Shown here: positions 566-59,252 of the stretch, piece by piece
How the letters are laid out: each line of letters begins with the position of its first letter
Numbering within the stretch: position 1 is the first letter of the stretch
Assembly (NCBI GenBank): GCA_022823665.1
Contig: JAJEHN010000037.1
Span: forward strand, 23,531-87,530
Direction of reading: 5' to 3'
Source of the DNA: Thermoanaerobaculia bacterium
GTDB taxonomy: Bacteria > Acidobacteriota > Thermoanaerobaculia > Multivoradales > Multivoraceae
Length of the DNA: 64,000 bases
Translations under genes and position numbers: made by a program
The notes under the pieces: model-generated
The model's database searches: none
The model's input: the letters and a program-made list of their open reading frames with translations, nothing else
Told to the model about the DNA's origin: nothing

Positions 566-587
566 GAGCCAGCGCAGCGGAAGCTGC

Positions 588-616
588 TTGACAGTCCGCA
601 CCTTCCGGTGCAGTAT
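588..616 (+). promoter_or_regulatory. Sigma70-type promoter for leader plus aro-his-trp operon
   Basis: TTGACA 588-593, 17-nt spacer, TG-CAGTAT 609-616. Confidence 0.6.
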
Positions 617-661
617 CCGGCGTCCTGGAGCCATTCCGGCCCGTTCCACCCGCACCGTGTC

Positions 662-766
662 ATGAACTCACCGGCCAGCACTTCCGCGTTCGTCGCTGCC
701 TCCGTCGCTCCGGCGACCGGGGTCGTGGCGACGTCCTGGTGGGCTCACGGTCACGGCAAGGGCTGA
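662..766 (+). CDS. Putative attenuator leader peptide, 34 aa MNSPASTSAFVAASVAPATGVVATSWWAHGHGKG
   Basis: Read by hand (below the ORF track cutoff); TGG TGG at 737-742, CAC at 746-748 and 752-754; lies between promoter and first operon gene. Confidence 0.8.
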   Translation: MNSPASTSAFVAASVAPATGVVATSWWAHGHGKG

Positions 767-807
767 ACCCGGGCCAGGTCCCGGTACGCACGGTCCGGGA
801 CGAGGGT
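767..807 (+). promoter_or_regulatory. Leader RNA hairpin (candidate alternative attenuator structure)
   Basis: GTCCCGG 778-784 pairs with CCGGGAC 795-801; ACCC 767-770 can pair with GGGT 804-807. Confidence 0.5.
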
Positions 808-813
808 AAGCAA

Positions 814-845
814 GAAGACCTCCTTCCGGATCGAAGGAGGTCTTC
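814..845 (+). promoter_or_regulatory. Perfect 13-bp hairpin sequestering the SD of aroDE
   Basis: GAAGACCTCCTTC-cggatc-GAAGGAGGTCTTC; 3' arm contains AAGGAGG 834-840, 10 nt before TTG 851; no U-tract. Confidence 0.8.
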
Positions 846-850
846 CCGCT

Positions 851-2440
851 TTGAACCCGACAACTGACGAACCCCGAACCGCCACCCTGGTGGCGTCGCT
901 GACCGAGGCGCCCAGCGCGTCCGGCGACGAGGTGCGCGCGCTCTCCGAGCAGGCGGACTGTCTGGAGGTGCGTGCGGATCTGGTCGGCGATGTCGGCGTC
1001 GAGTGGCTGCGGGAACGCTTCGCGGGCGAGCTCCTCTATACGCTGCGAAGCGAAGCGGAAGGCGGCCGGGGCACGGTCGAGCCGGAGCGGCGGGCGGCGC
1101 TGCTCTCCGCGGCGCAGGGATACGACCTGGTCGACATCGAGGCGGACCGCGATCTCGGCAGGACCGTCCTGGAAGCCGTCGAGCCCCGGCGTCGTGTCGT
1201 GTCGTGGCACGGCCGGGCGCGGAGCCTGAGGGTTCTGCGTGGCCGCCTGAGACAGGTTTCCGGGGTCGAGGCGCGGCTCTGCAAGCTCGTGACCGCCGCG
1301 GAGAACTCCGGCGACGAACTCGTGCCGCTCGAACTGCTGCTCGGCGCGCGTCGGAACGACCTCGCCGCCTTCTCCATGGGCGCTGTCGGCGCCTGGACCC
1401 GGCTGGTTGCGCCGCGTCTCGGCGCGCCGTGGATCTACGGCGCCGCCGGGCCGATGGCCGCCGCGCCCGGCCAACCGTCCATTGAACGGTTGCGGGCGGA
1501 CTACGGTTTACCGAACCTCCGCCGGGCATCGCGGCTCTTCGGCGTCGTCGGCCACCCGGCGGCGCACAGCCTGTCGCCCAGGCTCCACAACGCCGGTTAC
1601 CGCGACCGGGGCGAGGAGGCCCTCTACGTCGCCTTCGATGCGCCGGACTTCGAGGTCTTCTGGCGCGAGGTCGCGCTCTCCGACTTCTTCGACCGGGCGG
1701 GCCTGCCGCTGTGCGGCCTGAGTGTGACCGCGCCGCACAAGGCGGCGGCGCTCGCGGCGGCCTCCGAGGCGGGGGAGCTGGCGCGCGGGACTCAGGGCGC
1801 GAACACCCTGTTGCCGGAAGGTAGTGGCGCCGGAGCCCGGCGCAGGAAGGTCGCCGCTTCGCGGCGCGACTTCTTGGCCGCCTCCGGCGGCAGCGGGTCA
1901 GAAGACCCGCGCACCCGGTGGCGGGCAGAGAGTACGGACCCGGAAGGGGTCGTGGGCCCTTTTCGCCGTCGCGGCATCGATCTGGCGGGCCGCGCGGCCG
2001 TCGTGATCGGCGCCGGCGGGGCGGGGCGAGCCGCCGCCGCCGGTCTCGCTGCTGCCGGCGCCGAGGTGGCGCTCGCCAACCGCACGAGGCCGAGCGGGCG
2101 CGAGGCTGCCGAGTCGCTCGGCGTCGCCTTCGTGCCGCTCGAAGAGCTGGAACCCGGCGAATTCGACGTCGTGGTCAACGCGACGTCTCTCGGTCACCGG
2201 GCCGACGATCCGCTGCCCTGCGACCCGGCGGCGCTTCGGGCCTCGGCTGCCGCGGTCGAGCTGGTCTACGGCGGCGGTCCGACGCCCTGGAGCCGAACGC
2301 TCGCGGCGAGGGGCCTCGTGGTCATCGGCGGCCGGGAGGTGCTCCTGCATCAGGGGCTCTCGCAGTTCGAGGCGATGACCGGGAAGGTCCTGCCCTTCGA
2401 AGTCGGCGCCGCGGCCCTGGGTCTGGGGGCGCAGCCATGA
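851..2440 (+). CDS. aroDE: Bifunctional type I 3-dehydroquinate dehydratase / shikimate dehydrogenase
   Basis: N-half CLEVRAD and VVSWH (AroD); C-half GHPAAHSLSPRLHN, SVTAPHK, GANT, GAGGAGRA (AroE); TTG start inferred from the SD. Confidence 0.9.
   Translation: MNPTTDEPRTATLVASLTEAPSASGDEVRALSEQADCLEVRADLVGDVGVEWLRERFAGELLYTLRSEAEGGRGTVEPERRAALLSAAQGYDLVDIEADRDLGRTVLEAVEPRRRVVSWHGRARSLRVLRGRLRQVSGVEARLCKLVTAAENSGDELVPLELLLGARRNDLAAFSMGAVGAWTRLVAPRLGAPWIYGAAGPMAAAPGQPSIERLRADYGLPNLRRASRLFGVVGHPAAHSLSPRLHNAGYRDRGEEALYVAFDAPDFEVFWREVALSDFFDRAGLPLCGLSVTAPHKAAALAAASEAGELARGTQGANTLLPEGSGAGARRRKVAASRRDFLAASGGSGSEDPRTRWRAESTDPEGVVGPFRRRGIDLAGRAAVVIGAGGAGRAAAAGLAAAGAEVALANRTRPSGREAAESLGVAFVPLEELEPGEFDVVVNATSLGHRADDPLPCDPAALRASAAAVELVYGGGPTPWSRTLAARGLVVIGGREVLLHQGLSQFEAMTGKVLPFEVGAAALGLGAQP
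1821..1920 (-). repeat. Multi-hairpin REP-like cassette in-frame within aroE
   Basis: Hairpins 1827-1843, about 1850-1870 (imperfect), 1877-1891 and 1893-1910; 1877-1920 is 40/44 identical to the reverse complement of 30828-30871. Confidence 0.85.
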
Positions 2441-3441
2441 AGATCTCCGCCGGCCTGCCGACGGGGGTGTCGGCTGCCCTGTTCGACAGCGCGAAGCGGC
2501 GCCGCCGGCTCGAGGCGCGCCTTTCCGCGCTGCTCGAGGAGCGCGGTTTCGCCGAGGTCCTGCTGCCCATTCTCGACTACTTCGAGCCTTACCGGCCGCT
2601 GCTGACCGGTCGGCGGCTGGAGCAGCTCTACCGCTTCGTGGACCGGGACGGTCAACTGCTCGTTCTCCGGGGCGACTTCACGCCGATGCTGGCGCGGCTG
2701 CTCGCGCCGCACCTCGACGAGCTGGAACTGCCGCTGCGCCTCTACTACCGGGGCGATGTCGTGCGTCACCAGCCCTTGCGTCCCGGCCGGATGCGCGAGT
2801 ACTCCCAGTTGGGCGCGGAGCTTCTCGGCGGCGACGAGGCCGAAGCGGACGAGCGGATGTTGACCCTGTTCTTCGACCTGCTGCTCAAGGCGCGCGGCGA
2901 GGCTCCCGTACCCGGCGACGGCGAGGAGCACGCCCTGCGCGTCGTGCTCGGTGTGGCCGGAGCGCTCGACGAGGCCCTGCTGGCCGCTGCCGGCGATCGC
3001 GAAGCCTCCGACCTTGCGCTGCGCATCGCCAGCCGCGACCGGACCGCGGCGCGCCGGGCCGGTCTGGCCGAGGTCGTCGAGCGCGGCTACCCGACGGACC
3101 TCTCGGTACTGGGCGGCTTCGCCGAGGCAGTATCCGATCTCCTGGAGCTTCGCGACCGCCTGGCCGCGGCGTACCGGGGCCTGGGCATCGAGGTCGAGGT
3201 CGACCTCGCCGAGTTCGCCGCCGCCGCTCTCGACCCGCGCATCGGTGTCGGCGAGGGCCCACGCGGCTACTACGACGGCCTGATGTTCGCCGCCTACGCG
3301 CCCGGGACGGCCCTGGCCCTCGGCGTCGGCGGTCGCTACGACAAGGTGTTCCGGTCGCTCAGCGGCGATTGCTCCGCTGTCGGCTTCTCGCTCGGTCTCG
3401 ACCTGCTGCTGGAACTCGGCGCCGCGGAGGCGCTGCCATGA
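2437..3441 (+). CDS. hisZ: ATP phosphoribosyltransferase regulatory subunit
   Basis: LPTGV, YRFVDRDGQLLVLRGDFT, YYDGLMF, GGRYD, AVGFS; ATGA overlap with aroDE. Confidence 0.92.
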   Translation: MKISAGLPTGVSAALFDSAKRRRRLEARLSALLEERGFAEVLLPILDYFEPYRPLLTGRRLEQLYRFVDRDGQLLVLRGDFTPMLARLLAPHLDELELPLRLYYRGDVVRHQPLRPGRMREYSQLGAELLGGDEAEADERMLTLFFDLLLKARGEAPVPGDGEEHALRVVLGVAGALDEALLAAAGDREASDLALRIASRDRTAARRAGLAEVVERGYPTDLSVLGGFAEAVSDLLELRDRLAAAYRGLGIEVEVDLAEFAAAALDPRIGVGEGPRGYYDGLMFAAYAPGTALALGVGGRYDKVFRSLSGDCSAVGFSLGLDLLLELGAAEALP

Positions 3442-11997: not shown

Positions 11998-13024
11998 TCT
12001 CGACCTTTCCAACCTGCTGAGAACGACGATCGCCGGCGAGGATCTGCCGGCGGCGACGGTGGAGGAGCTGTTCGGCCGCCTGATGGACGGCGAACTCTCG
12101 GAGGTCTGGAAGAGCGCGTTCCTCGTCGCGCTGGCGGCGAAGGGAGAGTCGGTCGGCGAGATCGCCGGCGCCGCCCGGGCGATGCGCGCGCGTGCGGCGC
12201 GCGTCGAGCACGGGAGTTCCGGCGTGATCGACACCTGCGGCACCGGCGGCGACGGTCGGGGCACGTTCAACATCTCGACCGCGGCCGCGCTGGTCGCGGC
12301 GGCGGGCGGCGCCCGCGTCGCCAAGCACGGCAACCGCGCGGTCTCGAGCCGGTCCGGCTCGGCCGATGTGCTGGCCGCGCTGGGCGTGAGGCTCTCCGGC
12401 TACACGGAGGCGCTGGGGCGCTGCCTGGACGAGGTCGGCATCGTGTTCCTCTTCGCGCCGATGCTGCATCCTGCGATGGCCCAGGTCATGCCGGTGCGGC
12501 AGGAACTCGGCGTGCGCACCCTCTTCAACGTGCTGGGGCCCCTGACCAACCCCGCGGGCGCGAAACGGCAGTTGATCGGCGTCTTCTCGGCCGATCTCGT
12601 CGAGCCGATCGCGCGGGTCCTGCTCGAGCTCGGCAGCGAGCACGCGCTGGTCGTTCACGGCGACGGCCTGGACGAGATGACGACCACGGGCGCGACGGCG
12701 GTTGCCGAAGTCCGGGACGGCGAGGTCAAGACGTACGAGGTCCGGCCGGGCGACTTCGGCATCGCCGCGGCGTCGCCCGAGGACCTGCTCGGCGGCGACC
12801 CGGAGCGGAACGTCGAGCTGATGCGCGGCGTGCTCGACGGCGGGAAGGGGGCGCTGGCCGACATCACCTGCCTGAATTCCGGGGCGGCGCTCTACGTGGC
12901 GGGCAGGGCCGACAGTCTCGCGGCCGGCGTCGCCGCGGCGTCGGAGGTCCAGGCTTCCGGCGCGGCCGCCGCGAAGCTCGCTGAGCTCGTCAACTGGACC
13001 GGCTGGGACGACGGAGGGGAGTGA
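11990..13024 (+). CDS. trpD: Anthranilate phosphoribosyltransferase
   Basis: DTCGTGGDG, NIST, KHGNRAVSSRSGSAD, RTLFNVLGPL, DGLDE. Confidence 0.96.
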
Positions 13025-13872
13025 GGCCGGCGGTCGTGTCCGAAGTACCCGACATCCTGCGGCGCATCTGCGAGCAGCGGCGCCGGCGCGTGGTTGCCGG
13101 CGACGCGGGCGTATCCCCGGCGGGGCGTCTGCCCGCCGAGGCCCCGGGCGGTCGCTTCCTCGACGCGATCTCCGCGCGCCGCGGCCGGGCCGTGATCGCC
13201 GAGATCAAGATGGGTTCGCCCAAGCTGGGCGACCTGCGCGGCCGTTTCGATCCGGTCGCGCGCGCCGCGACCTACGCCGATGCCGGGGCGGCCTGCCTGT
13301 CCGTCGTGGTCGAGCCGGACCACTTCCACGGAAGCTACGAACTGCTGGCCGGGTGCGCGGCCGCGTCCGGGCTGCCGGCGGTGGCGAAGGACTTCGTCGT
13401 CTCCGACGTGCAGCTCGCGTGGGCGCGGGACGCGGGCGCCTCCGCCGTGCTGCTGATCGCGGCCCTCCACGACGCGGCTGAACTGCGCCGTCTGGCAGGG
13501 GTCGCCCGCGGCCTCGGGCTCGTGCCGCTGATCGAGACCCACGACGACGCGGACTTCGAGAAACTCCGTCCGCTGGCGCCGGACGACGGCGACGGGAAGA
13601 ACTCCAGTTGGGAACTGGTGGGCATCAACAACCGCGACCTGCGCACGTTCGAGGTCGACCTGGAACGCAGCGCCGGCCGCGTCGGCTGCCTGCCGTCGTC
13701 GGCCCTCAAGGTCGCCGAGTCGGGCATCCACACCGGCGCCGACGTCGCGAAACTGCGCCAAGCCGGTTTCGACGCTTTCCTGATCGGCGAACGCCTCGTG
13801 CTCTCCGGCGACCCCGCGGCGGCACTCGCTGAACTACTGGGTGCGCCGGCGCCCCACGAGGTGACCTCGTGA
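13021..13872 (+). CDS. trpC: Indole-3-glycerol phosphate synthase
   Basis: AEIK.GSP, KDF, GINNRDL, AESGI, LIGE. Confidence 0.93.
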   Translation: MRPAVVSEVPDILRRICEQRRRRVVAGDAGVSPAGRLPAEAPGGRFLDAISARRGRAVIAEIKMGSPKLGDLRGRFDPVARAATYADAGAACLSVVVEPDHFHGSYELLAGCAAASGLPAVAKDFVVSDVQLAWARDAGASAVLLIAALHDAAELRRLAGVARGLGLVPLIETHDDADFEKLRPLAPDDGDGKNSSWELVGINNRDLRTFEVDLERSAGRVGCLPSSALKVAESGIHTGADVAKLRQAGFDAFLIGERLVLSGDPAAALAELLGAPAPHEVTS

Positions 13873-14510
13873 AGGTCAAGATCTGCGGCGTCACGACACC
13901 CGCCGACGCCCGCCTCGCCGTCGACCTGGGCGCCGACTTCATCGGCCTCAACTTCTACCGTCCGAGCCCGCGCTGGATCGACGTCGACGAGGCGGCCCAC
14001 ATCCGCCGCCGGATCGGGAACCGGGCCCGGGCCGTCGGCATCTTCGTCGACCCCACGCGCGAAGAACTCGAGACGATCGACCGCAAGGTCGGCCTCGACT
14101 ACATTCAGTTCAGCGGCGACGAGAGCCCGGAACTCGTTGCCGAGTACAGCGTCCGCGCCATCCGTGTCCGCCGTGTTGGCGGCGCGGCGGCCCCGGCCCC
14201 GGTCCTTGAGGAGGATTGCTGGGCGGTCCTGATCGACCGCGCCCACGATCGCCTCTACGGCGGCTCCGGCGAGAGCTGGGACTACGCCGCCGCGGCCGAC
14301 CTCGTCCGAACGCCGGCCGGCGACGGCGGGCCGCGACGCCTGTTCATCGCAGGCGGCGTGCGCCCCGGCAACGTTGCCGAAGTGGCGTCGGCGGTGCCTG
14401 GCGCCTACGCCGTCGACACCTGTTCGGGCGTCGAGTCCGCGCCCGGCCGGAAGGATCGCACCAAGCTGGAGCGACTGTTCGCCAACCTCAGAGCGGGAGC
14501 AGCACGATGA
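13869..14510 (+). CDS. trpF: Phosphoribosylanthranilate isomerase
   Basis: [36 protein letters not shown]. Confidence 0.93.
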
Positions 14511-29022: not shown

Positions 29023-29975
29023 GCGACGACCGCAACATCGTGATCCACGACGTCTCGAAGTTCTACGGCGACGTGCTGGGCGTCAACCGGGTCGACCTGG
29101 AGATCGAGCCGGGCATCACCAGCCTGGTCGGCCCGAACGGCTCCGGCAAGAGCACGCTGATGAACCTGCTAGCGGGCCTGTTGCGGCCGACCCGGGGCGA
29201 GATCAGCGTTCTCGGCCTCCCGGTGACCCGGCCGCAGGATCTGTTCCGCCGTTTCGGCTACTGCACCCAGTACGACTCCTTCCCGCGGGGCGCCACCGGC
29301 TGGCAGTTCGTCTTCTCCTACCTGCTGCTTCACGGCCTGGACCGCGGCGAGGCGGAACGCCTGACCGCCCGGGCCCTGGAGCGCGTCGGCCTGGTCGACT
29401 CGGCGCACCGTCGGATCGCGGGCTACAGCAAGGGCATGCGGCAACGGATCAAGCTGGCGCAGGCGATCGCGCACGGGCCGCAGGTCATGGTGCTCGATGA
29501 GCCGCTCAACGGCCTCGATCCGATGGTCCGCGCCGAGACGATCGAACTCTTCCGGCAACTGGCCGGCGAGGGACAGCACGTGCTCATCTCGAGCCACATC
29601 CTGCACGAGGTCGACCTGCTGTCGGACCGCGTCATCCTGATCTCGAACGGCTACATCGTCGCCGAAGGCGAGGTGCCGGGCATGCGGGCGGAAGTCGAGG
29701 AGGTCCGCGAGCAGCCGCTCCAGGTCTTCGTGCGCTGCGACCGTCCGCAGTGGCTCGCCGGCCGCGCCTTCGAGCTGGACCACGTCACCGAGGTGCAGCT
29801 TCACGACGACGGCGGCGGCCTCCACCTGCGCACGCGGGACGCGGACCGCTTTCTGCGCCTGGTGGCCGAACTGGTCGCCGAGGGCGGCGTGGAGGTCGAA
29901 GCGGTGGGCCCGGCGGACAGCGACCTGCAGGCCGTCTACCGCTACCTGGTTGACGAAGAGGAGGAGCCCTCGTGA
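29019..29975 (+). CDS. ABC transporter ATP-binding protein
   Basis: [25 protein letters not shown]; GTGA overlap. Confidence 0.95.
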
Positions 29976-30826
29976 CGGTGGCCCAGGAGACGGCGGCGCG
30001 TCCGCGCCTCGACTGGGCGCTCCTGGCCCGGCAGGTCGGCGGACTCGTGCGGCTGGAACTGCGCCGGCTGCTGCTGACCCGCAGGGCGGTGATCCTGGGG
30101 CTCGCGTCGGCGATTCCCGTGGGGATCGTCCTCCTGGTCGGCTCGATACCGATCGGCGGCCAGACGGTGCTGGAACGCTTCGGCAACCGGATCGTCTACG
30201 AGACGATCTTCGAGACGGTCTTCCTCGGCGCGATCCTGTTCTTCGGTTGCCTGTACGTCTTCTTCAACCTGTTCCGGGGCGAGATCCTGGAGCGCAGCCT
30301 GCACTACCTGCTGCTGACGCCGCTTCGCCGCGAAGTCGTCGTGGCGGCGAAGTACGCGGCCGCGGTCGCCGCGGTGGCGGTGCTGTTCATGGCGAGCACC
30401 GTGTTCAGCTACGCGCTGATCTACCTGCCCGTGGGCGTCTCCGGTGCGATCGAGGACCTGACCGCCGGCCCGGGCGGCCGCCATCTGGTGGCCTACCTGG
30501 GGGTGACCCTGCTCGCCTGCATCGGCTACGGCTCGCTGTTCACACTGGTCGGCATGGTGTTCCGGAACCCCATCATCCCGGCCGGCGCCCTGTATGTCTG
30601 GGAGATGCTGCACTTCCTGCTGCCGCCGGCGCTCAAGAAGCTCAGCGTGATCCACTATCTGAAGGGCCTGCTGCCGGTGCCGCTTTCCGACGGTCCGTTC
30701 GCCGTGGTCGTCGAACCGCCGCCGCCGGCCGTCTCCGTCCTCGGCCTGCTCGCCTTCGCCGCCGTCGTGCTCGCGGTGACCGCCCTGATCATCCGCCGCA
30801 TGGAGATCCGGTACACCGAGGACTGA
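29972..30826 (+). CDS. ABC-2 type permease
   Basis: Hydrophobic helices, [17 protein letters not shown]...AK. Confidence 0.85.
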
Positions 30827-30827
30827 C

Positions 30828-30900
30828 CACTGGGTGCGCGGGTCGTCTGACCCGCCGCCGCCGCAGGCGGCATGAAGAACGCGCCGGCCGCAGGCCGGCC
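30828..30900 (+). repeat. REP-like composite (CACTGGGTG-CGCGGGTC/GACCCGC variant plus two GC hairpins)
   Basis: Starts 1 nt after the permease stop; CACTGGGTGCGCGGGTCGTCTGACCCGC 30828-30855; matches copies in aroE and hemCD. Confidence 0.85.
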
Positions 30901-30920
30901 CAATCTGCCACGATTGCCTT

Positions 30921-31747: not shown

Positions 31748-31789
31748 GGCGGCGCACAAACTACCGCACTTGACGTGTCGGCGACAGCA

Positions 31790-31836
31790 ACTGGGTGCGC
31801 CGGCGCCCTCGCCGGCATCCGGCGCAGAGCGCCGGC
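31790..31836 (+). repeat. REP-like palindrome (GCCGGC-stem variant)
   Basis: ACTGGGTGCGCCGGCGCCCTCGCCGGCATCCGGCGC identical to 46609-46644. Confidence 0.9.
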
Positions 31837-31870
31837 CCTCCGGCCGACACCCACGGCTATGCTTCACGCC

Positions 31871-39381: not shown

Positions 39382-39401
39382 GAGTCGTGAAGGATACGGG
39401 C

Positions 39402-39455
39402 TCGCCGCTTCGCGGCGTCGCGCGGATGCCGGCGAGGGCGCCGGCGCACCCAGTG
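39402..39455 (-). repeat. REP-like palindrome plus GCCGC-TTC-GCGGC hairpin
   Basis: Reverse complement of 39424-39455 equals 46608-46639 (32/32); begins 7 nt after the GPP34 stop. Confidence 0.9.
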
Positions 39456-46607: not shown

Positions 46608-46655
46608 CACTGGGTGCGCCGGCGCCCTCGCCGGCATCCGGCGCGAGGCGCCGGC
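46608..46655 (+). repeat. REP-like palindrome
   Basis: CACTGGGTGCGCCGGCGCCCTCGCCGGCATCCGGCGC, 7 nt after the msrP stop, between convergent genes. Confidence 0.9.
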
Positions 46656-46663
46656 TCCGCGAG

Positions 46664-48265
46664 CTACCGTTCCGTCCCCGCTGCCAGCGTCGTTCCCGCA
46701 CCGTGCCGCGCGGCCTGCACCGCGGCCGCGAACAGGCCGATCGCGACGCCGAAGGTGATCAGACCTACGAGTTGCAGCCAGCCGAACATGTCCGATGGCG
46801 TGGCGATCGAGAGTAGCGCGGATCCGAAGCCGAAGTCGGCGAACTCGCCGGCGCGCACGGCCTCGAGCGCGCTCAGACCTGTGAGCAGGAGGGCGCCTCC
46901 GCCCAGAGTAAGGGCACCGTAGGTCACGCCGTGAGCGGTGAGCTGCGCCGGCGACCGCGGCGGCAGCGGCTCCTGGCGGCGAACCTCGAACTTCGGCTCG
47001 CGCTCGCTCGGCTTGACGAAGCGGCTGAGCATGTAGAGGCCGGGCAGGCCGAGCGGGATGGTGAAGAGGAAGAAGTTCGACCACCCCACCGAGTGCACCA
47101 TGAAGCCGGCGATGGGCCCGGAGACGATCCGTCCCATGCCGAAGAGGGTCGAGAACAGGGCGTACTGAGTAGCCGAGAAGCGCTTCTGCGTCATGCGCAG
47201 CAGCAGCACGGAAAAGGCGCCCGTCCCCAATCCCTGGCACAGCGATTCGAACCCCATGGCGCCGTAGAGAAGGCCCGGCTGCATCGGCAGGTTGGCGAGC
47301 AGGATGTACCCGACGTTGGAGAAGATCTGGAGGAACCCGAAGATCCACAGCGCCCTTCCGAGGCCGATCACGTTCGTCCCGAGACCACCGACGATGGAGC
47401 CGACGATTGTCGCCGTCGTGCCGACGGTCGCCAGGGCTACACCGCGGTGGAACTCGGTGTAGCCCATGTCGACCAGGAATGGTCGTAGCAGGCCCTGGGC
47501 CAGGTTGTCGCCGAACTTGAAGAGAATGACGAAGGCGAGAATCTCGACCGCTCGGTGGCGGGAGAGAAAGCCCAGAAACGGCTGCCAGACGGCGTCCCGG
47601 AGCGTCTTCGGGCCGGGCGGCAGGTTCTTCGGCTCGGGCGCCAGGATGGTCACTGCGAGCATTGGCAGGTAGAGAGCTGCCAGGCCGACGCAGACGAGCG
47701 GCCACGAGATGCTGCCAGCGACCGTGATGGCGGTCCCGCCGGCAACGAGCATGGCCATCCGGTAGAGCCCGATCCTGGCGCCGACCGCCGCTCCCTGTTC
47801 CTCCTTGCGGAGCACGTCCACGGCGTAGGCGTCGACCGCGATGTCCTGGGAGGCGGCCGCCATGGCGATGGCCAGGGTCAGAGCCAGAGCCAGCCAGGGA
47901 GTGTCCGGATGATCGCCGACGCCTGCCAGAGAGAGCGTGCCAAGCAGCAGGCACACCTGGGCGACCGCCGCCCAGCCCCGGCGGCGACCGAGGAAGGGCA
48001 GGGGGAAGCGGTCCATGAGGGGCGCCCAGACGACGTTGAACGTCCACGGCGCTTGCGCCAGCGTGAAGAGGCCGACCAACCGGATGTCGATGCCGGCGTC
48101 GCGCATCCAGTCCGGTATCGCGATCCAGACCAGCCCCAGCGGCATGCCGGACGAGAACGAGAGGAGGACGACCGACAGCGTCCGCCAGGAGCGGACTGCC
48201 TGTGCGAGGCTCTGCAGCGTTCCGAGCCGTTCCGGCGCCTGCTCCTGCTCGGCCATCGGACTCAT
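46664..48265 (-). CDS. ampG: AmpG-like muropeptide MFS transporter
   Basis: SFSSGMPL, W.PLMDR...PFLGRRRGW, ASQDI.VDAY, ILFKFGD, FSATQYALFS. Confidence 0.88.
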   Translation of the reverse strand: MSPMAEQEQAPERLGTLQSLAQAVRSWRTLSVVLLSFSSGMPLGLVWIAIPDWMRDAGIDIRLVGLFTLAQAPWTFNVVWAPLMDRFPLPFLGRRRGWAAVAQVCLLLGTLSLAGVGDHPDTPWLALALTLAIAMAAASQDIAVDAYAVDVLRKEEQGAAVGARIGLYRMAMLVAGGTAITVAGSISWPLVCVGLAALYLPMLAVTILAPEPKNLPPGPKTLRDAVWQPFLGFLSRHRAVEILAFVILFKFGDNLAQGLLRPFLVDMGYTEFHRGVALATVGTTATIVGSIVGGLGTNVIGLGRALWIFGFLQIFSNVGYILLANLPMQPGLLYGAMGFESLCQGLGTGAFSVLLLRMTQKRFSATQYALFSTLFGMGRIVSGPIAGFMVHSVGWSNFFLFTIPLGLPGLYMLSRFVKPSEREPKFEVRRQEPLPPRSPAQLTAHGVTYGALTLGGGALLLTGLSALEAVRAGEFADFGFGSALLSIATPSDMFGWLQLVGLITFGVAIGLFAAAVQAARHGAGTTLAAGTER

Positions 48266-48307
48266 CCTATGCGTAATCGTCTATGAATCCGACGATGCCG
48301 GTGACCT

Positions 48308-51398: not shown

Positions 51399-52682
51399 AT
51401 GCCGGAACCGATCCTGTTCCCGCGCTTGATCGAGCGCCGACTTGTCGAGGCCCTGGAAGACTCTCCGGCCGTTCTCATCCATGGTCCGCGGCAGTGCGGC
51501 AAGACGACGTTGGCCCGCATGGCGGCTGCCGGCCCTGACCGGCTCGGCTATTCCTACGTCAGCCTGGACGACGCGGTGGCCCGCGACAGTGCCCGGTTGG
51601 ACCCGGCGGGATTCGTCGGCGAGCTTCCGGACCGGGTCATTCTGGACGAGGTTCAGCGCGCGCCGGAGCTGTTCGAGGCGATCAAGCTGGACGTGGACCG
51701 CCGGCGGGCGCCCGGTCGTTTCCTGCTCACGGGTTCAACGAACGTACTGCTCCTGCCGAAGCTGTCCGAGTCGCTTGCGGGGCGTCTGGAGATCGTTCGG
51801 CTTCATCCGCTGGCGCAGCGGGAGACTGCGGGGCCATCGAAAGAGCCGGTGGGCGTTGCGCCCCGCCGCGAGTTCCTGGATCTTCTCTTCGGCGACGGAT
51901 TCGACGTCCGTCGCTCGGAGCGGCTTGGCGCCGAGCTTCCGGAACGCATCGCGGCCGGCGGCTTCGCACCGGCGATCCTTCGTCCCACTCACCGGCGCCG
52001 GGCGAACTGGCATCGGAGCTATGTCGAAGCGCTGGTTGCCCGAGACGTGCGGGACCTTGCGAACATCCGGTCTCTCGATGTGTTACCGAGGTTGCTTTCG
52101 GCCGTTGCCGGCCAGACCGCGCGTCTCTTCAACCTGACGGACCTGGCCGCGCCGTTTCAGCTCAGCCGGCCGACGATCCGCGACTATGTGGCGCTGCTCG
52201 AGCGCCTGTTCCTGTTTGAGCGGCTCCTCCCATGGCACAGCAATCGTCTGAGCCGGCTGGTCAAGAGCCCGAAACTCCACTTCGTGGACACGGGAGTCGC
52301 CGCCACGCTTCTGGGCACGAGTCCGGCCGGTCTGATGGCGGACCGCCCCCTGCTCGGGCAGCTACTGGAGACCTTCGTCTACCAGGAACTTCGGCGTCAG
52401 GCCGGCTGGCACGACACGCCTTTCGGCTTCTTCCACTTCCGCGACCGGGATGGGTTCGAGGTCGACATCGTGATCGAGCAAGGACCGGCCGCCGTGGCGG
52501 GCGTTGAAGTCAAGGCGTCCGCGACGGTCAGACCGTCCGACTTCCGTGGCCTCCGCAAGCTGGCCGCGACCGTCGGTGGTCGCTTCGCAGGCGGAGTGGT
52601 CCTCTACGATGGCGAACTGACCGCACGCTTCGGAGACCGTCTCCACGCCGTGCCTGTCCGCCGGCTGTGGGAGACGGTGTGA
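51399..52682 (+). CDS. AAA+ ATPase with DUF4143 domain
   Basis: GPRQCGKTT, ILDEVQR, LLTGS, KSPKLHFVDTG, EVDIV..GVEVKAS; start ATG 51399. Confidence 0.9.
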   Translation: MPEPILFPRLIERRLVEALEDSPAVLIHGPRQCGKTTLARMAAAGPDRLGYSYVSLDDAVARDSARLDPAGFVGELPDRVILDEVQRAPELFEAIKLDVDRRRAPGRFLLTGSTNVLLLPKLSESLAGRLEIVRLHPLAQRETAGPSKEPVGVAPRREFLDLLFGDGFDVRRSERLGAELPERIAAGGFAPAILRPTHRRRANWHRSYVEALVARDVRDLANIRSLDVLPRLLSAVAGQTARLFNLTDLAAPFQLSRPTIRDYVALLERLFLFERLLPWHSNRLSRLVKSPKLHFVDTGVAATLLGTSPAGLMADRPLLGQLLETFVYQELRRQAGWHDTPFGFFHFRDRDGFEVDIVIEQGPAAVAGVEVKASATVRPSDFRGLRKLAATVGGRFAGGVVLYDGELTARFGDRLHAVPVRRLWETV

Positions 52683-52729
52683 CGGCGCTTCGCGCCGGGT
52701 GCCGGCCAGAAGGCCGGCGCACCGGCAGT
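52683..52729 (-). repeat. Diverged REP-like palindrome filling the gap between convergent genes
   Basis: Reverse complement ACTGCCGGTGCGCCGGCCTTCTGGCCGGCACCCGGCGCGAAGCGCCG aligns to 46609-46653. Confidence 0.75.
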
Positions 52730-52739
52730 TGGCCTTTCC

Positions 52740-54176
52740 TCAGCTCGCCTTCGGCAAAGCTCCCATCACGGCCTTGACCTCAAGGAACTCCTCGAAGCCG
52801 AAGTCCCCCCACTCGCGGCCGTTGCCGGACTGCTTGTAGCCGCCGAAGGGGGCGCCGAAGTCGGCAGGGGCGCCGTTGATGTGGACGTTGCCGGCGCGGA
52901 TGCGCGAGGCGACGCTGCGGGCGTGGTCGAGGTCGCCGGACTGGACGTAGCTGGAGAGGCCGTACGGGGTGTCGTTGGCGATCCGGATCGCTTCTTCCTC
53001 CGTCTCGTAAGGGAGGATCGAGAGCACGGGACCGAAGATCTCCTCCTGGGCGATCGTCATGTCGTTGCTGACCCCGCCGAAGACGGTGGGGCGGACGTAG
53101 TAGCCGCTGTCCATGCCTTCGGGGCGGTCGGTGCCGCCGGTGACCAGCTCGGCGCCTTCCTCGATGCCCTTGGCGATGAGGCCCTGGATCTTGTCGTACT
53201 GGACCTTGCTGACGACGGGGCCGATGGCGACGCCTTCCTGTCCCGGCGGACCGACGGCGGTCGCTTCGGCGGCCGCCTTGGCGACCTCGAGCGCACGGGC
53301 GTGCGAGGCCGCCGGCACGAGCATCCGCGTGGGAGCGTTGCAGGACTGGCCGCTGTTCAGGAAGCACTGCCGGGTGCCCGCCTTGACCGCCTTGTCGATG
53401 TCCGCGTCCTCGAGGACGATGTTCGGCGACTTGCCGCCGAGTTCCTGGGCGACCCGCTTGATCGAGTCGGCGGCGGCCTTGGCCACGGCGCGGCCGGCGC
53501 GCGTCGAGCCGGTGAAGGACATCATGTCGATGCCCGGGTGACCCGACAGCGCGGCGCCGACCTCGGGGCCTTCCCCGTTGATCAGGTTGAAGACGCCCGG
53601 CGGAACGCCCGCGTCGTGGAGGATCTCGGCGAGGAGGATCGCGTTGAGCGGCGCCACCTCGCTCGGCTTGAGCACCATCGTGCAGCCCGCGGCGAGCGCC
53701 GGCGCCACCTTGCAGGCGATCTGGTTGATCGGCCAGTTCCAGGGCGTGATCAGGCCGCAGACGCCGACCGGTTCCTTGACGATGTTCGTCGTGCCGCGCG
53801 TCTCGACGAACTCGTAGCCCTTCAGCACGTTCAGGGCGCCGGCGAAGTGGCCGAGGCCGGAGGGCGCCTGGGCGGCCTTGGCGAGCCAGGCCGGGGCGCC
53901 CATCTCCATGGAGATCGTCTCCGCCATCTCGCCGATCCGGGCCTGGTAGCCGGCGACGATGCGGCCGAGGAGTTCCACGCGTTCTTCCTGGCTGGTCTGT
54001 GAGAAGGACTCGAAGGCTGCCTGCGCCGCCGCGACGGCCTTGTCGACGTCCGCCGCGCTGCCGAGGCTGATCCGGCCGACCGCTTCTTCCGTCGACGGAT
54101 CGATCACGTCCATCGTCTTCGGGGCCACCGGGTCGACCCATTCACCGTTGATGTAGAACTGCAGCGCTTCCTTCAT
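52740..54176 (-). CDS. NAD(P)-dependent aldehyde dehydrogenase
   Basis: ITPWNWP, LKPSE, FTGST, ELGGKSP, NSGQSC, EEIFGPV, FGGYKQSG.GRE. Confidence 0.96.
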   Translation of the reverse strand: MKEALQFYINGEWVDPVAPKTMDVIDPSTEEAVGRISLGSAADVDKAVAAAQAAFESFSQTSQEERVELLGRIVAGYQARIGEMAETISMEMGAPAWLAKAAQAPSGLGHFAGALNVLKGYEFVETRGTTNIVKEPVGVCGLITPWNWPINQIACKVAPALAAGCTMVLKPSEVAPLNAILLAEILHDAGVPPGVFNLINGEGPEVGAALSGHPGIDMMSFTGSTRAGRAVAKAAADSIKRVAQELGGKSPNIVLEDADIDKAVKAGTRQCFLNSGQSCNAPTRMLVPAASHARALEVAKAAAEATAVGPPGQEGVAIGPVVSKVQYDKIQGLIAKGIEEGAELVTGGTDRPEGMDSGYYVRPTVFGGVSNDMTIAQEEIFGPVLSILPYETEEEAIRIANDTPYGLSSYVQSGDLDHARSVASRIRAGNVHINGAPADFGAPFGGYKQSGNGREWGDFGFEEFLEVKAVMGALPKAS

Positions 54177-54237
54177 GGGACTCTCTCCGCGTGTGTGTTG
54201 GTTCCTTGGGCCGGTGAGTGTAGCCCGGATGAGGCAG

Positions 54238-55635
54238 CTACGGGAGCAGCAGGCGGGCGGCCTTCTCCCCGCACTCGGCGCCGACGGCGATCGCCCGGCT
54301 CAGGCCGACGCCGTGGAGCGCGTTGCCGGCCAGGTAGAAGCCGTCGATCGGGTCCAGGGCGGCCTCGATTCGGGTCACTCGCCGCAGGTGGCCAGGGGCG
54401 TACTGCGGGATGGCGTGCGGCCAGCGGGCGACGCTCGTGTAGGTCGGTTCCGCGTCGATGCCGGCCGTCCGGCGTAGCTCGCGGAGGGTCAGGTCGACGA
54501 GCTGAGCGTCGCCGAGGTCGGCAGCCTCGGGGTCCACGCTGCCTCCGAACATCGAGCGGGTCAGGAACGTGCCATTCGGGCCGCGGCCTCGGAAGGTAGC
54601 GGTCTCGTACTGGCAGCCGAGCATGCGGATGCCTTCGCCGCGGGCGACGAGGAAGCCGTAGGCCGGCTCGATGTGGGCAGCGGCCGCGGCGTCGAAGGCG
54701 GTATGGACGACGGCCATCGGCGGCGACTCGATCTGCCGGAGTTCGGCCGCGGCCTCTGCCGAGACGCCGTCGACGAGATCCGCGGCCGAAGGCAGGTCGG
54801 CCGCTACGACGACTGCATCTCCAGTGACTTCGCCGCCGGACGAAGCGACCCTGAAGCCGCTGCCGCGCCGCTCGATCGCGGTGACCCGCCGGTTGCAGCG
54901 GACTTCGATTCCCGGAAGAGCGCCGACGGCGTGCGGAAAGGCCTGGATGCCGTGGCGAAGTGTCCGGTGCCCTGGCGGCGGAACGCCGCGCCTGCGGCCG
55001 GCGCGCATCGCCTTGAACAGGGAACCGTAGGCCCGTTCCATCGCGACCAGACGCGGAAACGCGGCCGCGGCCGAGAGCTTCCGCGCGTCGCCGGCGAAGA
55101 TGCCGAGGACGACGGGCGAGATGAGGCGCCGGGCCGCCTGCGGCCCCATGCGGCGGGCGGCGAAGTCGTACAGCGACTCGTCTTCGCCGGCGCCGCCCTC
55201 CGCGTCGTCGTCGTGCCGACTCCGCACCAGGGGTTCCAGCGCCAGCCGCGCCAGGCCGAGCGGTCCCAGCATGCCGCTCCTGGCGAAGGCCAGCGGGCTG
55301 CGCCGCAACTCCCGCAGCCTGCCGCCCCGGTAGATGTAGCGTCGGTTCGCCGCCGGTTCCGGCGCCAGCACCTCGCTCTCGAGGCCGCAGGCGGCGATCA
55401 TCTCCCGCACGACCGGCTGATCGTCGAGGAAACCCTGGGGGCCGGTCTCGATCAGGAAGCCGCCGGCCTGTCCGGTCCGGGCCTTGCCGCCGACCTCGCC
55501 GTCCGCCTCGAGCACGAGGATCTCGATCTCGCGGCCGGCGCGCTCCGCTTCGACCGACGCTTTCCAGGCGGCGGCCAGTCCGGAAGGCCCGCCGCCGACG
55601 ACAACCAGGCGGCAGGCCTCCGGCTGTTCGCTCAA
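54238..55635 (-). CDS. hemY: FAD-dependent protoporphyrinogen/coproporphyrinogen oxidase (HemY type)
   Basis: VVGGGPSGLAAA, GGKART, ETGPQGF, GIFAGD, W..AIPQY..GH, AGN...GVG; TTG start by TTGA overlap. Confidence 0.9.
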   Translation of the reverse strand: MSEQPEACRLVVVGGGPSGLAAAWKASVEAERAGREIEILVLEADGEVGGKARTGQAGGFLIETGPQGFLDDQPVVREMIAACGLESEVLAPEPAANRRYIYRGGRLRELRRSPLAFARSGMLGPLGLARLALEPLVRSRHDDDAEGGAGEDESLYDFAARRMGPQAARRLISPVVLGIFAGDARKLSAAAAFPRLVAMERAYGSLFKAMRAGRRRGVPPPGHRTLRHGIQAFPHAVGALPGIEVRCNRRVTAIERRGSGFRVASSGGEVTGDAVVVAADLPSAADLVDGVSAEAAAELRQIESPPMAVVHTAFDAAAAAHIEPAYGFLVARGEGIRMLGCQYETATFRGRGPNGTFLTRSMFGGSVDPEAADLGDAQLVDLTLRELRRTAGIDAEPTYTSVARWPHAIPQYAPGHLRRVTRIEAALDPIDGFYLAGNALHGVGLSRAIAVGAECGEKAARLLLP

Positions 55636-58115: not shown

Positions 58116-59252
58116 TCACGGTTGTGTCGGCGTCGACGATCCACTCTCGCGCACGCCGCTACGCGGCGGCGCGTCTGATGCCGGCGGGGGCGCCGGCGCA
58201 CCCAGTGTTCGCCACTCGCGGGTGTTGCGGAGGATCAGGTCGGTCAGCGCGTCGAGGTGGTCGGGGCGGTCGTTGAGGCAGGGGATGTAGCGGAGGCGCT
58301 CGCCGCCGGACTCCTCGAAGTAGCCGCGGTTCTCGACCTCGATCTCTTCGAGCGTCTCGATGCAGTCGGCGGAGAAGCCGGGGCAGGCGACGTCGACGTT
58401 CCCGAGGCCGGCCTGGGGCAGCTCGCGCATCGTGGCATCCGTCTTCGGGCCGATCCAGAGTTCGCGGCCGAACTGGGACTGGAACGTGCTGATCACCCGC
58501 TCCGCGTCGATGCCCAGTTCCTCCACCAGCAGGCGTGTCGTCTCCAGGCACTGGCACTGGTAGGGATCGCCGTTGTCGATGTAGCGCTTGGGGACGCCGT
58601 GGTAGGAGAGGACGAGCCGGTCGGGCTCGCCGTCGGCCCAGGTCTCGCGGATGCTGGCGGCGAGGGCGCGCAGGAAGCCGGGGTCGTCGTAGTAGCTGTT
58701 GATCGTGCGCAGTTCCGGCACCCAGCGCCAGCGGCGGAGTTGCCGGGCGAGCATGTCGACCGTGGACGCCGTGGTGGCCGCCGAGTACTGCGGGAAGAGC
58801 GGGAAGAACAGGAGGCGCGTGCATCCCCTGTTGCGGAGTTCGGCGAGCGCGCTTCGGATGGAGGGGGTGCCGTATCGCATCCCGATGGCGACGTGAAAGG
58901 TCGGCTCGCCCGCTCCCTGAGCCTCCCGCAGCCGTCGTTCGATGCCCTCGACCTGCCGTTTGCCGATCGCGAGGAGCGGCGAGCCTTCGTCCGTCCAGAT
59001 CTTCTCGTAGAGCTTCGCGACCCGCTGCGGCCGCGTTGTCAGGACGAACAGGTACAGGATCGGCAGCCACTTCCAGCGCGGCACCTCGGCGATGCGCGTG
59101 TCGCTCAGGAACTGCCGAAGGTAGCGGCGCAGGGCCTTCGGCGTCGGGGCCGCCGGCGTGCCGACGTTGGCGAGCAGGACGCCGATGGCGCGGCGGTCCA
59201 CGGAGGCTTCGACGCGCGGTTCCGGTTCGTAGAGAGATGTGCCGCTGGTCAT
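58116..59252 (-). CDS. hemH: Ferrochelatase
   Basis: GVLL.N.GTP, PL.PQYSAAT, SYHG.P, FQSQFG..WIGP, PGFSADCIETLEEI. Confidence 0.95.
   Translation of the reverse strand: MTSGTSLYEPEPRVEASVDRRAIGVLLANVGTPAAPTPKALRRYLRQFLSDTRIAEVPRWKWLPILYLFVLTTRPQRVAKLYEKIWTDEGSPLLAIGKRQVEGIERRLREAQGAGEPTFHVAIGMRYGTPSIRSALAELRNRGCTRLLFFPLFPQYSAATTASTVDMLARQLRRWRWVPELRTINSYYDDPGFLRALAASIRETWADGEPDRLVLSYHGVPKRYIDNGDPYQCQCLETTRLLVEELGIDAERVISTFQSQFGRELWIGPKTDATMRELPQAGLGNVDVACPGFSADCIETLEEIEVENRGYFEESGGERLRYIPCLNDRPDHLDALTDLILRNTREWRTLGAPAPPPASDAPPRSGVRESGSSTPTQP
58154..58207 (-). repeat. REP-like palindrome translated as part of the HemH C-terminal tail
   Basis: Reverse complement of 58177-58207 is 30/31 identical to 46608-46638; adjacent CGCCGC-TAC-GCGGCG hairpin like that at 39402. 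Confidence 0.88.

Follow-up and report, generated by a model that had tools for sequence, protein, structure and literature searches.

A dispersed hairpin repeat lying in frame within the shikimate dehydrogenase part of an acidobacterial AroD-AroE fusion

An aroD-aroE fusion gene that carries a segment of repeat DNA within its reading frame was analyzed in a 64,000-nucleotide (nt) stretch of contig JAJEHN010000037.1, hereafter the window. The window has a G+C content of 70% and comes from a 'Candidatus Multivorans'-like host of the class Thermoanaerobaculia (Acidobacteriota) with a genome of ~5 Mb. The fusion gene (aroDE) occupies positions 851-2440 on the plus strand and encodes, in an intact reading frame, a protein of 529 amino acids (aa). 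A preliminary description of the locus had suggested that a mobile palindrome has become protein sequence in this core enzyme. Below we describe the insert, the repeat family it comes from and the readings that may account for its presence.

The product of aroDE combines a type I 3-dehydroquinate dehydratase (AroD) with a shikimate dehydrogenase (AroE). Pfam analysis of the 529-aa protein placed PF01487 at residues 28-216, PF08501 at 232-320 and PF01488 at 377-446; the C-terminal end of PF08501, at residue 320, coincides with the motif GANTL. Residues of the catalytic motifs (S240, S242, K297, N318, T319, D363 and Q501) were unchanged across 40 aligned orthologues. An AlphaFold2 model of the protein, calculated with 115 homologues as input, had a mean predicted local distance difference test score (pLDDT) of 93.2 and a predicted template modelling score of 0.91. 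Foldseek comparison of this model with Arabidopsis DHQ-SDH (2O7Q) gave template modelling (TM) scores of 0.76-0.79, and comparison with bacterial AroE structures gave target TM scores of ~0.9. The host protein thus has PF08501 and PF01488, the catalytic Lys and Asp, the NT and NTD motifs and the AroE fold.

The translation of the open reading frame (ORF) around the insert is GANTLLPEGSGAGARRRKVAASRRDFLAASGGSGSEDPRTRWRAESTD. Between GANTLLP and WRAESTD, that is, between the NT and (S/N)TD motifs, it contains the residues EGSGAGARRRKVAASRRDFLAASGGSGSEDPRTR, exactly as had been read before. The insert is, however, smaller than the ~33 residues (~100 nt) originally assigned to it. The window protein exceeds its nearest insert-free orthologues, which are 504 aa long, by exactly 25 codons, and the first nine of the atypical residues, EGSGAGARR, are a native loop that aligns one-to-one with CRNGAATRR and GRNGSGRRQ of the relatives (at the DNA level, AGT GGC GCC GGA GCC CGG CGC against AAT GGC GCC GCG ACC AGG AGG). 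The net insertion is therefore 75 nt, at about 1843-1917, with boundaries ambiguous by 1-2 nt; it comprises 25 codons (about R332-R356, RKVAASRRDFLAASGGSGSEDPRTR), and the element's own orientation is on the minus strand. An example of an insert-derived peptide in the predicted translation is DFLAASGGSGSEDPR.

Family membership of the segment was assessed with a covariance model, R1, built from 45 repeat copies of other genomes; aroDE loci and the window itself contributed no sequence to it. R1 matched positions 1849-1920 of the minus strand end to end (model positions 1-76) with 78.9 bits and an E-value of 1.4e-15. This was the second-best match in the window, after an intergenic copy at 30828-30903 on the plus strand (84.7 bits, E 7.5e-17) which begins 2 nt past the stop codon of the ORF at 29954-30826. 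The antisense likeness of these two segments, pointed out in the preliminary description, was recovered by BLAST, which aligned 1877-1921 with 30871-30827 on the opposite strand at 41/45 identity (91%). Ungapped extension covered 60 nt at 82% identity (1862-1921 against 30827-30886), and a 33-nt core occurred twice in the window at three or fewer mismatches, with none expected from shuffled sequences. The closest paralogues of the insert in other genomes were 91-94% identical over ~68 nt (BLAST). We conclude that the aroE insert is a complete copy belonging to a dispersed family of hairpin repeats and, since R1 matched the minus strand, that the element is antisense to aroE.

The DNA of the insert region has a strong predicted secondary structure. 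Positions 1811-1930 fold into consecutive hairpins with an energy of -76.1 kcal/mol, compared to a mean of -59.7 kcal/mol for dinucleotide shuffles (z = -4.1), none of 200 shuffles folding as well. The conserved head of the family, GGGTGCGC, lies on the minus strand at 1909-1916 and is read on the plus strand as GCGCACCC; it is therefore found at the 3′ side of the insert. It is followed on the element strand by hairpin 1 at 1894-1909 (CGGGTC / loop / GACCCG, encoding ...GSEDP...), hairpin 2 at 1877-1891 (GCCGCC-GGAG-GCGGC) and hairpin 3 at 1852-1866 (CGCCGC-GAAG-CGGCG); the 15-mer of hairpin 3 is also present in the copy at 39400-39455, and many other genomes contain it too. Four consecutive hairpins had been proposed for this segment. 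The hairpin folding itself was borne out, but the fourth palindrome, GCGCCGG-AGC-CCGGCGC at 1827-1843, consists almost wholly of native loop codons (G326-R331) and lies outside the family model: the loop surrounding it aligns with the related loci L122, L123 and L002, and the R1 match ends at 1849. The GTAG taken earlier for the start of the element is likewise present, at 1821-1824, but it belongs to native loop codons outside the R1 match. It was rejected as a head of the repetitive extragenic palindromic (REP) type, the conserved head lying at the opposite end and on the minus strand. No Rfam family matched the element; the sole Rfam match at E <= 1 within 1500-2300, to mir-718, was sub-threshold (23 bits against a gathering score of 55) and was dismissed as a chance match.

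The architecture of the family was deduced from 173 copies aligned in register. It consists of the head, which follows (C)T, hairpin 1 (GGGTC-TTCT-GACCC), hairpin 2 (GCCGCC-GAAG-GCGGC), a purine-rich spacer, hairpin 3 in one of two forms (GCCGGCC..GGCCGGC or CGCCGC-GAAG-CGGCG) and a short tail. Head columns were invariant in an alignment of 45 copies (A3), and in nearly all of the 173 copies C-T or C-C stood directly before the head. The aroE element has a GC content of 76% and, as a single unit, no terminal inverted repeats. Copies also form palindromic doublets of ~135 nt in which two inverted units have their heads outward, one per end (for example, in loci L012, L028, L034, L096 and L099). 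Inspection by eye of the flanks of three doublets, a small sample (L012, L096 and L099), revealed no target-site duplication. Tandem arrays of three to four units, each consisting of head and hairpin 1 alone and repeating every 28-40 nt, were seen in L032 (2820-2897), L038 (1916-2057) and L101 (482-600). When one genome per GTDB species was scanned with GGGTGCGCGGGTCNNNNGACCC, at least 112 stretches matched, and nearly all of the matches listed came from metagenome-assembled genomes of Thermoanaerobaculia, 'Candidatus Multivorans', Holophagales or Acidobacteria.

Orthologues were aligned for presence or absence of the insert. A protein search returned 935 homologues, of which 123 were parsed for loop length (lengths include LP). 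The loop was 6 residues long in 63 of them, 11 residues in 27 and 36 residues in a further 27. The prevalence of the six-residue form agrees with the earlier statement that AroE has only a short loop here, as does the Arabidopsis DHQ-SDH structure, which has NTILRRKSDGKLLGYNTD at the insert position (a HMMER alignment to PDB chain 2GPT misaligns the insert region and was used solely for reading the short native loop). Orthologues of ~50% identity have the six-residue stretch, while those of 67-93% identity have LP followed by a 9-residue loop (GRNGAAAGQ, CRNGAATRR or GRNGSGRRQ). The 36-residue version is confined to one subclade, and the insert is missing in the closest 504-aa orthologues and in all more distant ones. 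On this comparison of sequences the insert is shown to be the derived state. Among the related loci, R1 found an in-gene aroE copy in L004, L005, L006 and L007 and none in L001, L002, L003, L008, L122 and L123, all of which but L008 (five of six) carry a family copy upstream of aroDE. Since genomes free of the insert carry the family elsewhere, the insert is not one that occurs in relatives lacking the repeat.

Two further alleles lack parts of the loop. In L001 (P0005) and L003 (P0026/P0143) the 84 nt corresponding to 1834-1917 are missing, and the junction, LLPEGSGAG/WRAES, is identical in both. In L121 (P0008) the 69 nt corresponding to 1822-1890 are missing, with the junction LLPEGSG/SEDPRTRW. 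L121 keeps the head and hairpin 1 (residual R1 match of 37.5 bits) and must therefore descend from an insert-bearing allele. Both missing segments preserve the frame and are bounded by short imperfect direct repeats, GCGCCGG / GCACCCGG for the 84-nt segment and GGTAGTGG / GGCAGCGG for the 69-nt one. The 84-nt allele is read as a second deletion, which also removed three native loop codons. The aroDE alleles are mosaic: in 100-nt steps, identity to the window varied from 0.56 to 1.00 within the one gene (851-2440 compared with L001-L007). Mosaicism this strong indicates frequent homologous recombination between strains.

The sequences come from metagenome assemblies, in which repeats can produce mis-joins. 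The chance that the insert is an artefact of assembly, or that aroDE is such a pseudogene, is nevertheless negligible. Identical junctions were found in independent assemblies made from different samples with different assemblers, long-read contigs included, and 27 protein sequences, drawn from several independent assemblies, carry the insert in frame (the loci L004, L005, L006 and L007 are from different samples), which excludes an assembly artefact. A pseudogene is at odds with the intact frame, the invariant catalytic residues and the confidently predicted fold. With its three length variants (0, -84 and -69 nt) all in frame and its catalytic residues invariant, the gene appears to be still under selection.

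In the AlphaFold2 model the insert is located at the tip of a beta-hairpin and is of low confidence, while the rest of the protein exceeds 90 pLDDT. Mean pLDDT over successive 10-residue blocks of residues 321-350 was 73, 54 and 51, confidence falling only in the insert. The flanking strands comprise residues 319-322 and 357-360, so the insert extends the tip of the beta-hairpin that has the NT and STD motifs at its base. Structure prediction had been proposed earlier as a way to place the insert on a surface loop; in the model it is predicted to lie in a surface loop tolerated by the host fold.

The R1 match, the derived state of the insert and its in-frame occurrence in 27 sequences all support the original idea of a mobile palindrome turned into protein sequence. 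Very probably, a 75-nt repeat resembling REP elements and their hairpin-forming doublets (REPINs) was inserted in antisense orientation into the aroE part and is translated as a flexible surface loop of an enzyme that has stayed functional. According to this scenario, a mobile, non-autonomous repeat of the REP/REPIN type would have entered a permissive surface loop at the tip of the NT-(S/N)TD beta-hairpin. In an essential gene only those insertions would survive whose length is a multiple of three and which contain no stop codon. The aroE insert has both properties and would thus be translated as a 25-residue stretch rich in Gly, Ser, Arg, Asp and Pro, a composition that may be tolerated as a protruding flexible loop. 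Being rich in hairpins, the insert would be prone to slippage deletion between short imperfect direct repeats, in-frame deletions persisting; the 84-nt and 69-nt deletions presumably survived because they restored a short loop. The element probably arrived through the same transposition or recombination that disperses the family. As target-site duplications were not seen, a single-strand mechanism like that of REPs and REP-associated tyrosine transposases (RAYTs) is suggested. Homologous recombination may then have carried the insert-bearing segment between strains. We infer that the element is a tolerated selfish passenger and not an adaptation.

Several points weigh against this reading. That the insert is translated and the enzyme active are both predictions. 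RAYT is a Y1, IS200/IS605-like transposase (PF01797-type) that mobilises REP/REPIN elements in Gammaproteobacteria; with E. coli YafM as the query, tblastn gave no match at E < 0.1 in 0.96 Mb of loci centred on the repeats, which is a weak test. The insert has also diverged little. The 84-nt segment containing it is 96-99% identical among insert-bearing alleles, and in three of four alleles (L004, L005 and L006) it is significantly less diverged than the 300-nt flanks (Fisher p = 0.006, 0.002 and 0.0001, respectively). A purely neutral old passenger does not predict such low divergence, which needs recombination, gene conversion or constraint; the data fit recent recombinational spread, homogenisation against other genomic copies and sequence constraint alike. 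Finally, the exact boundaries of the insert are not settled. If L001 and L003 represent the empty site, the insert would be 84 nt long and the likeness between the loop and those of the relatives a coincidence.

This last variant, in which LLPEGSGAG/WRAES is the true empty site and the element (1834-1917) brought half of 'hairpin 4' with it, we regard as unlikely. Its junction does occur naturally, and identically, in two genetic backgrounds, while no allele with the inferred pre-insertion loop EGSGAGARR/W was observed. Some long composite copies of the family run on past hairpin 3 with ...CCTTGTTG-TCCGGGCT..., a continuation similar to the extra 14 nt. However, the family model and the best paralogues end at ...GCGGCGACC, so the last 14 of the 84 nt are non-canonical. 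EGSGAGARR agrees residue by residue with the loops of the 504-aa orthologues, from which the window protein differs by exactly 25 codons. That the insert can suffer internal deletions in frame is proved by the 69-nt allele, and the downstream sequence common to L001 and L003 means that one deletion followed by recombination suffices for both.

Low divergence can be read in a different way, as the result of selection on the peptide. The inserted residues would then have gained a role, for instance in a protein-protein contact, in localisation or in regulating the bifunctional enzyme, and be kept by selection at the protein level. The insert has indeed been kept in 27 sequences from genes that elsewhere diverge at up to ~17% of nucleotides, and, besides having diverged less than its flanks, it contains roughly three non-synonymous and four synonymous changes, a number too small for a ratio of non-synonymous to synonymous substitution rates. 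Such exaptation seems quite improbable to us in view of the natural alleles that persist with all or most of the insert missing, and of the AlphaFold2 model, in which the insert has low confidence and no packed structure. Moreover, the same peptides are found in unrelated proteins and in a linker (see below), as expected if they reflect the DNA element and not AroE.

Selection could also act on RNA, with the hairpins in the coding sequence serving as an mRNA element (for example, translational pausing between the two AroE domains, a processing or stability signal, or attenuation). The strong predicted structure and the conservation of the insert's nucleotides above that of the flanks are in line with this, as are two stem substitutions, in L005 and L007, that yield G-U pairs on the sense strand, and the position of intergenic copies just past stop codons, like that of mRNA-stabilising REP elements. 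On the other hand, no compensatory double substitutions were seen, stem-disrupting changes are present in other alleles (P0129 and P0137), the deletion alleles are viable and Rfam contains no match. The element strand is antisense to the aroE mRNA, and both orientations occur in other genes. We consider a function at the RNA level very improbable, and a tolerated antisense insertion remains the preferred reading for the aroE locus.

Copies in other coding sequences, which the preliminary description had proposed to look for, were indeed found. In the window, a copy at 62276-62337 on the plus strand (R1, 57.1 bits) lies inside the minus-strand ORF 61533-63392, which encodes a HemC-HemD fusion. 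It occupies the interdomain linker and is read as ...AGLTAGALFSAGQKTRAPS..., the in-frame linker sequence including ...ALFSAGQKTRAPS.... The fusion itself is ancestral, and its linker varies in length among orthologues, which have no head (616 aa), one head or two heads (645-671 aa) at overall lengths of 604-770 aa; AGQKTRAP is present in 20 of them. In related genomes, in-frame copies were identified in a peptidase S9 (L012, ~2821-3197; two or three insertions), a peptidase M16 (L099, 4099-4236; a whole 45-aa doublet inside PF05193), a Zn-dependent alcohol dehydrogenase (L027, at 2989, just before the GxGxxG motif), a polyketide synthase (L090, at 2019) and a VWA-domain protein (L014, at 6596); Pfam domains flank these insertions on one side or on both. 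Three frames of the element are in use, one in its sense orientation (WVRGSSDP) and two in antisense (GSEDPRT(Q/R) and AGQKTRAPS), while the sense frame with TGA is unused. The peptides WVRGSSDP, GSEDPRTQ and AGQKTRAP recur among unrelated proteins. Coding sequences harbour roughly 5% of the copies sampled, a share that holds as an order of magnitude only, because the sample was biased and the filter crude. A simple gene caller (GC3/GC2 thresholds) overlooked the HemC-HemD copy, which was found by inspection.

Under the covariance model the 64-kb window contains eight copies at E < 0.01, six of them extragenic. Besides the three described above, these are a copy whose first hairpin differs (CGGCGCCCTCGCCGG), located ahead of a gene start (31789-31852, plus strand), a copy between two minus-strand genes (39400-39455, minus), one adjoining the stop codon of the minus-strand ORF 46664-48280 (46608-46668, plus), one downstream of the minus-strand ORF 52740-54299 (52669-52730, minus) and one at the junction of two minus-strand ORFs (58151-58207, minus). 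A partial copy at 13835-13880 (head followed by CGGCGCC...), with a weak model score of 14.4 bits, overlaps the last ~12 codons of a trpC-like ORF (12985-13872) and the start of the next ORF; it may be the source of the C-terminus of the trpC-like protein.

Most relatives have a full family copy, in either orientation, ~300 nt upstream of aroDE. Such copies were located in L001 and L002 (2647-2723 in each), L003 (1627-1702), L004 (1626-1701), L005 (1173-1248), L007 (1628-1703), L122 (139-213) and L123 (142-218), and some of them lie within a longer element that has terminal inverted repeats GCATGGAACTGGCCGCC. The corresponding part of the window (566-850) contains no family copy. In L001 an IS1595-family transposase gene is located upstream of aroDE (813-1721); it is probably unrelated to the repeat family. 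The aroDE gene itself varies in length at other places too. At the AroD N-terminus, orthologues have from zero to four tandem motifs of ~9 aa, T(E/A)VA(R/Q)SAT (counted in columns 27-53 of alignment A1), the window having none (851-900); the copy number of this motif is a separate length polymorphism of the same gene. L004 (P0015) and L003 (P0026) have an extra in-frame insert, AAAGEREAAGNAPCG, after NAGYRH (A1 columns 307-322), and L008 (P0035) has another, VTDFLAARQPAPGGDVAADLLYGH, after VYGG (A1 columns 552-575), which has DFLAA in common with the window insert.

Dispersed palindromic repeats located in frame inside genes were described in Rickettsia as Rickettsia palindromic elements (RPEs; Ogata et al., 2000, Science), as recounted in PMC10969869. 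The family described here resembles them in being dispersed and palindromic, in having copies in frame in unrelated housekeeping genes (AroE, HemC-HemD and others) with the ORF preserved, in encoding a recurrent hydrophilic peptide at sites tolerated by the fold (here, as predicted) and in having intergenic copies in the same genome. It differs in its GC content of ~75% and in its stem-loops of 14-17 nt behind the GGGTGCGC head, RPEs being AT-rich and ~100-150 bp long. The hosts also differ, an acidobacterium of ~5 Mb as opposed to a reduced obligate intracellular alphaproteobacterium. Compared to the ~5% of sampled copies found in coding sequences here, nearly half of the 44 RPEs of R. conorii were reported within genomic ORFs (PMC10969869). 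Thus, the element behaves as RPEs do without belonging to RPE-1 to RPE-10, from which it is set apart by phylum and base composition rather than by direct alignment.

With REP/REPIN elements the family shares short imperfect palindromes, a conserved head, hundreds of copies that are mostly extragenic and often just past stop codons, inverted doublets and tandem arrays, and the lack of target-site duplication in the doublets inspected. Unlike them, it has the head (C)TGGGTGCGC instead of GTAG, and it enters reading frames repeatedly, whereas REPs are extragenic by definition. Intragenic repeats of the miniature inverted-repeat transposable element (MITE) type, such as ERIC, Correia/NEMIS and pneumococcal BOX, have been reviewed (PMC10969869); like those, the family is small, non-autonomous and occasionally fused in frame with host ORFs. 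MITE-type repeats are, however, DDE-derived, with terminal inverted repeats and target-site duplications, while the aroE unit has no terminal inverted repeats and the doublets, though inverted at their ends, have no duplication at L012, L096 and L099. In the literature that could be searched, no paper on repeats of this clade was found.

It is mainly in Rickettsia that selfish palindromic DNA has been documented as a frequent in-frame colonist of essential genes. The same outcome is seen here in a different phylum, by way of an unrelated GC-rich element built from REP-like units. One enzyme offers a natural allelic series (no insert, the full insert and two in-frame deletions), which is material for testing insertion tolerance, insertion decay and the contribution of new loops and linkers. 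In the annotation of metagenome-assembled genomes of this clade, the repeats inflate protein lengths and create low-complexity segments. We tentatively propose, at somewhat less than an even chance, that 'Candidatus Multivorans' and related Thermoanaerobaculia possess a second, independent system of the Rickettsia RPE type, in which an element with three hydrophilic frames (WVRGSSDP, GSEDPRTQ/R and AGQKTRAPS) colonises many unrelated genes, creates or extends loops and linkers between domains and is homogenised within genes by ongoing gene conversion or recombination. If this is true, the repeats would keep supplying new protein sequence to a bacterium whose genome is large.

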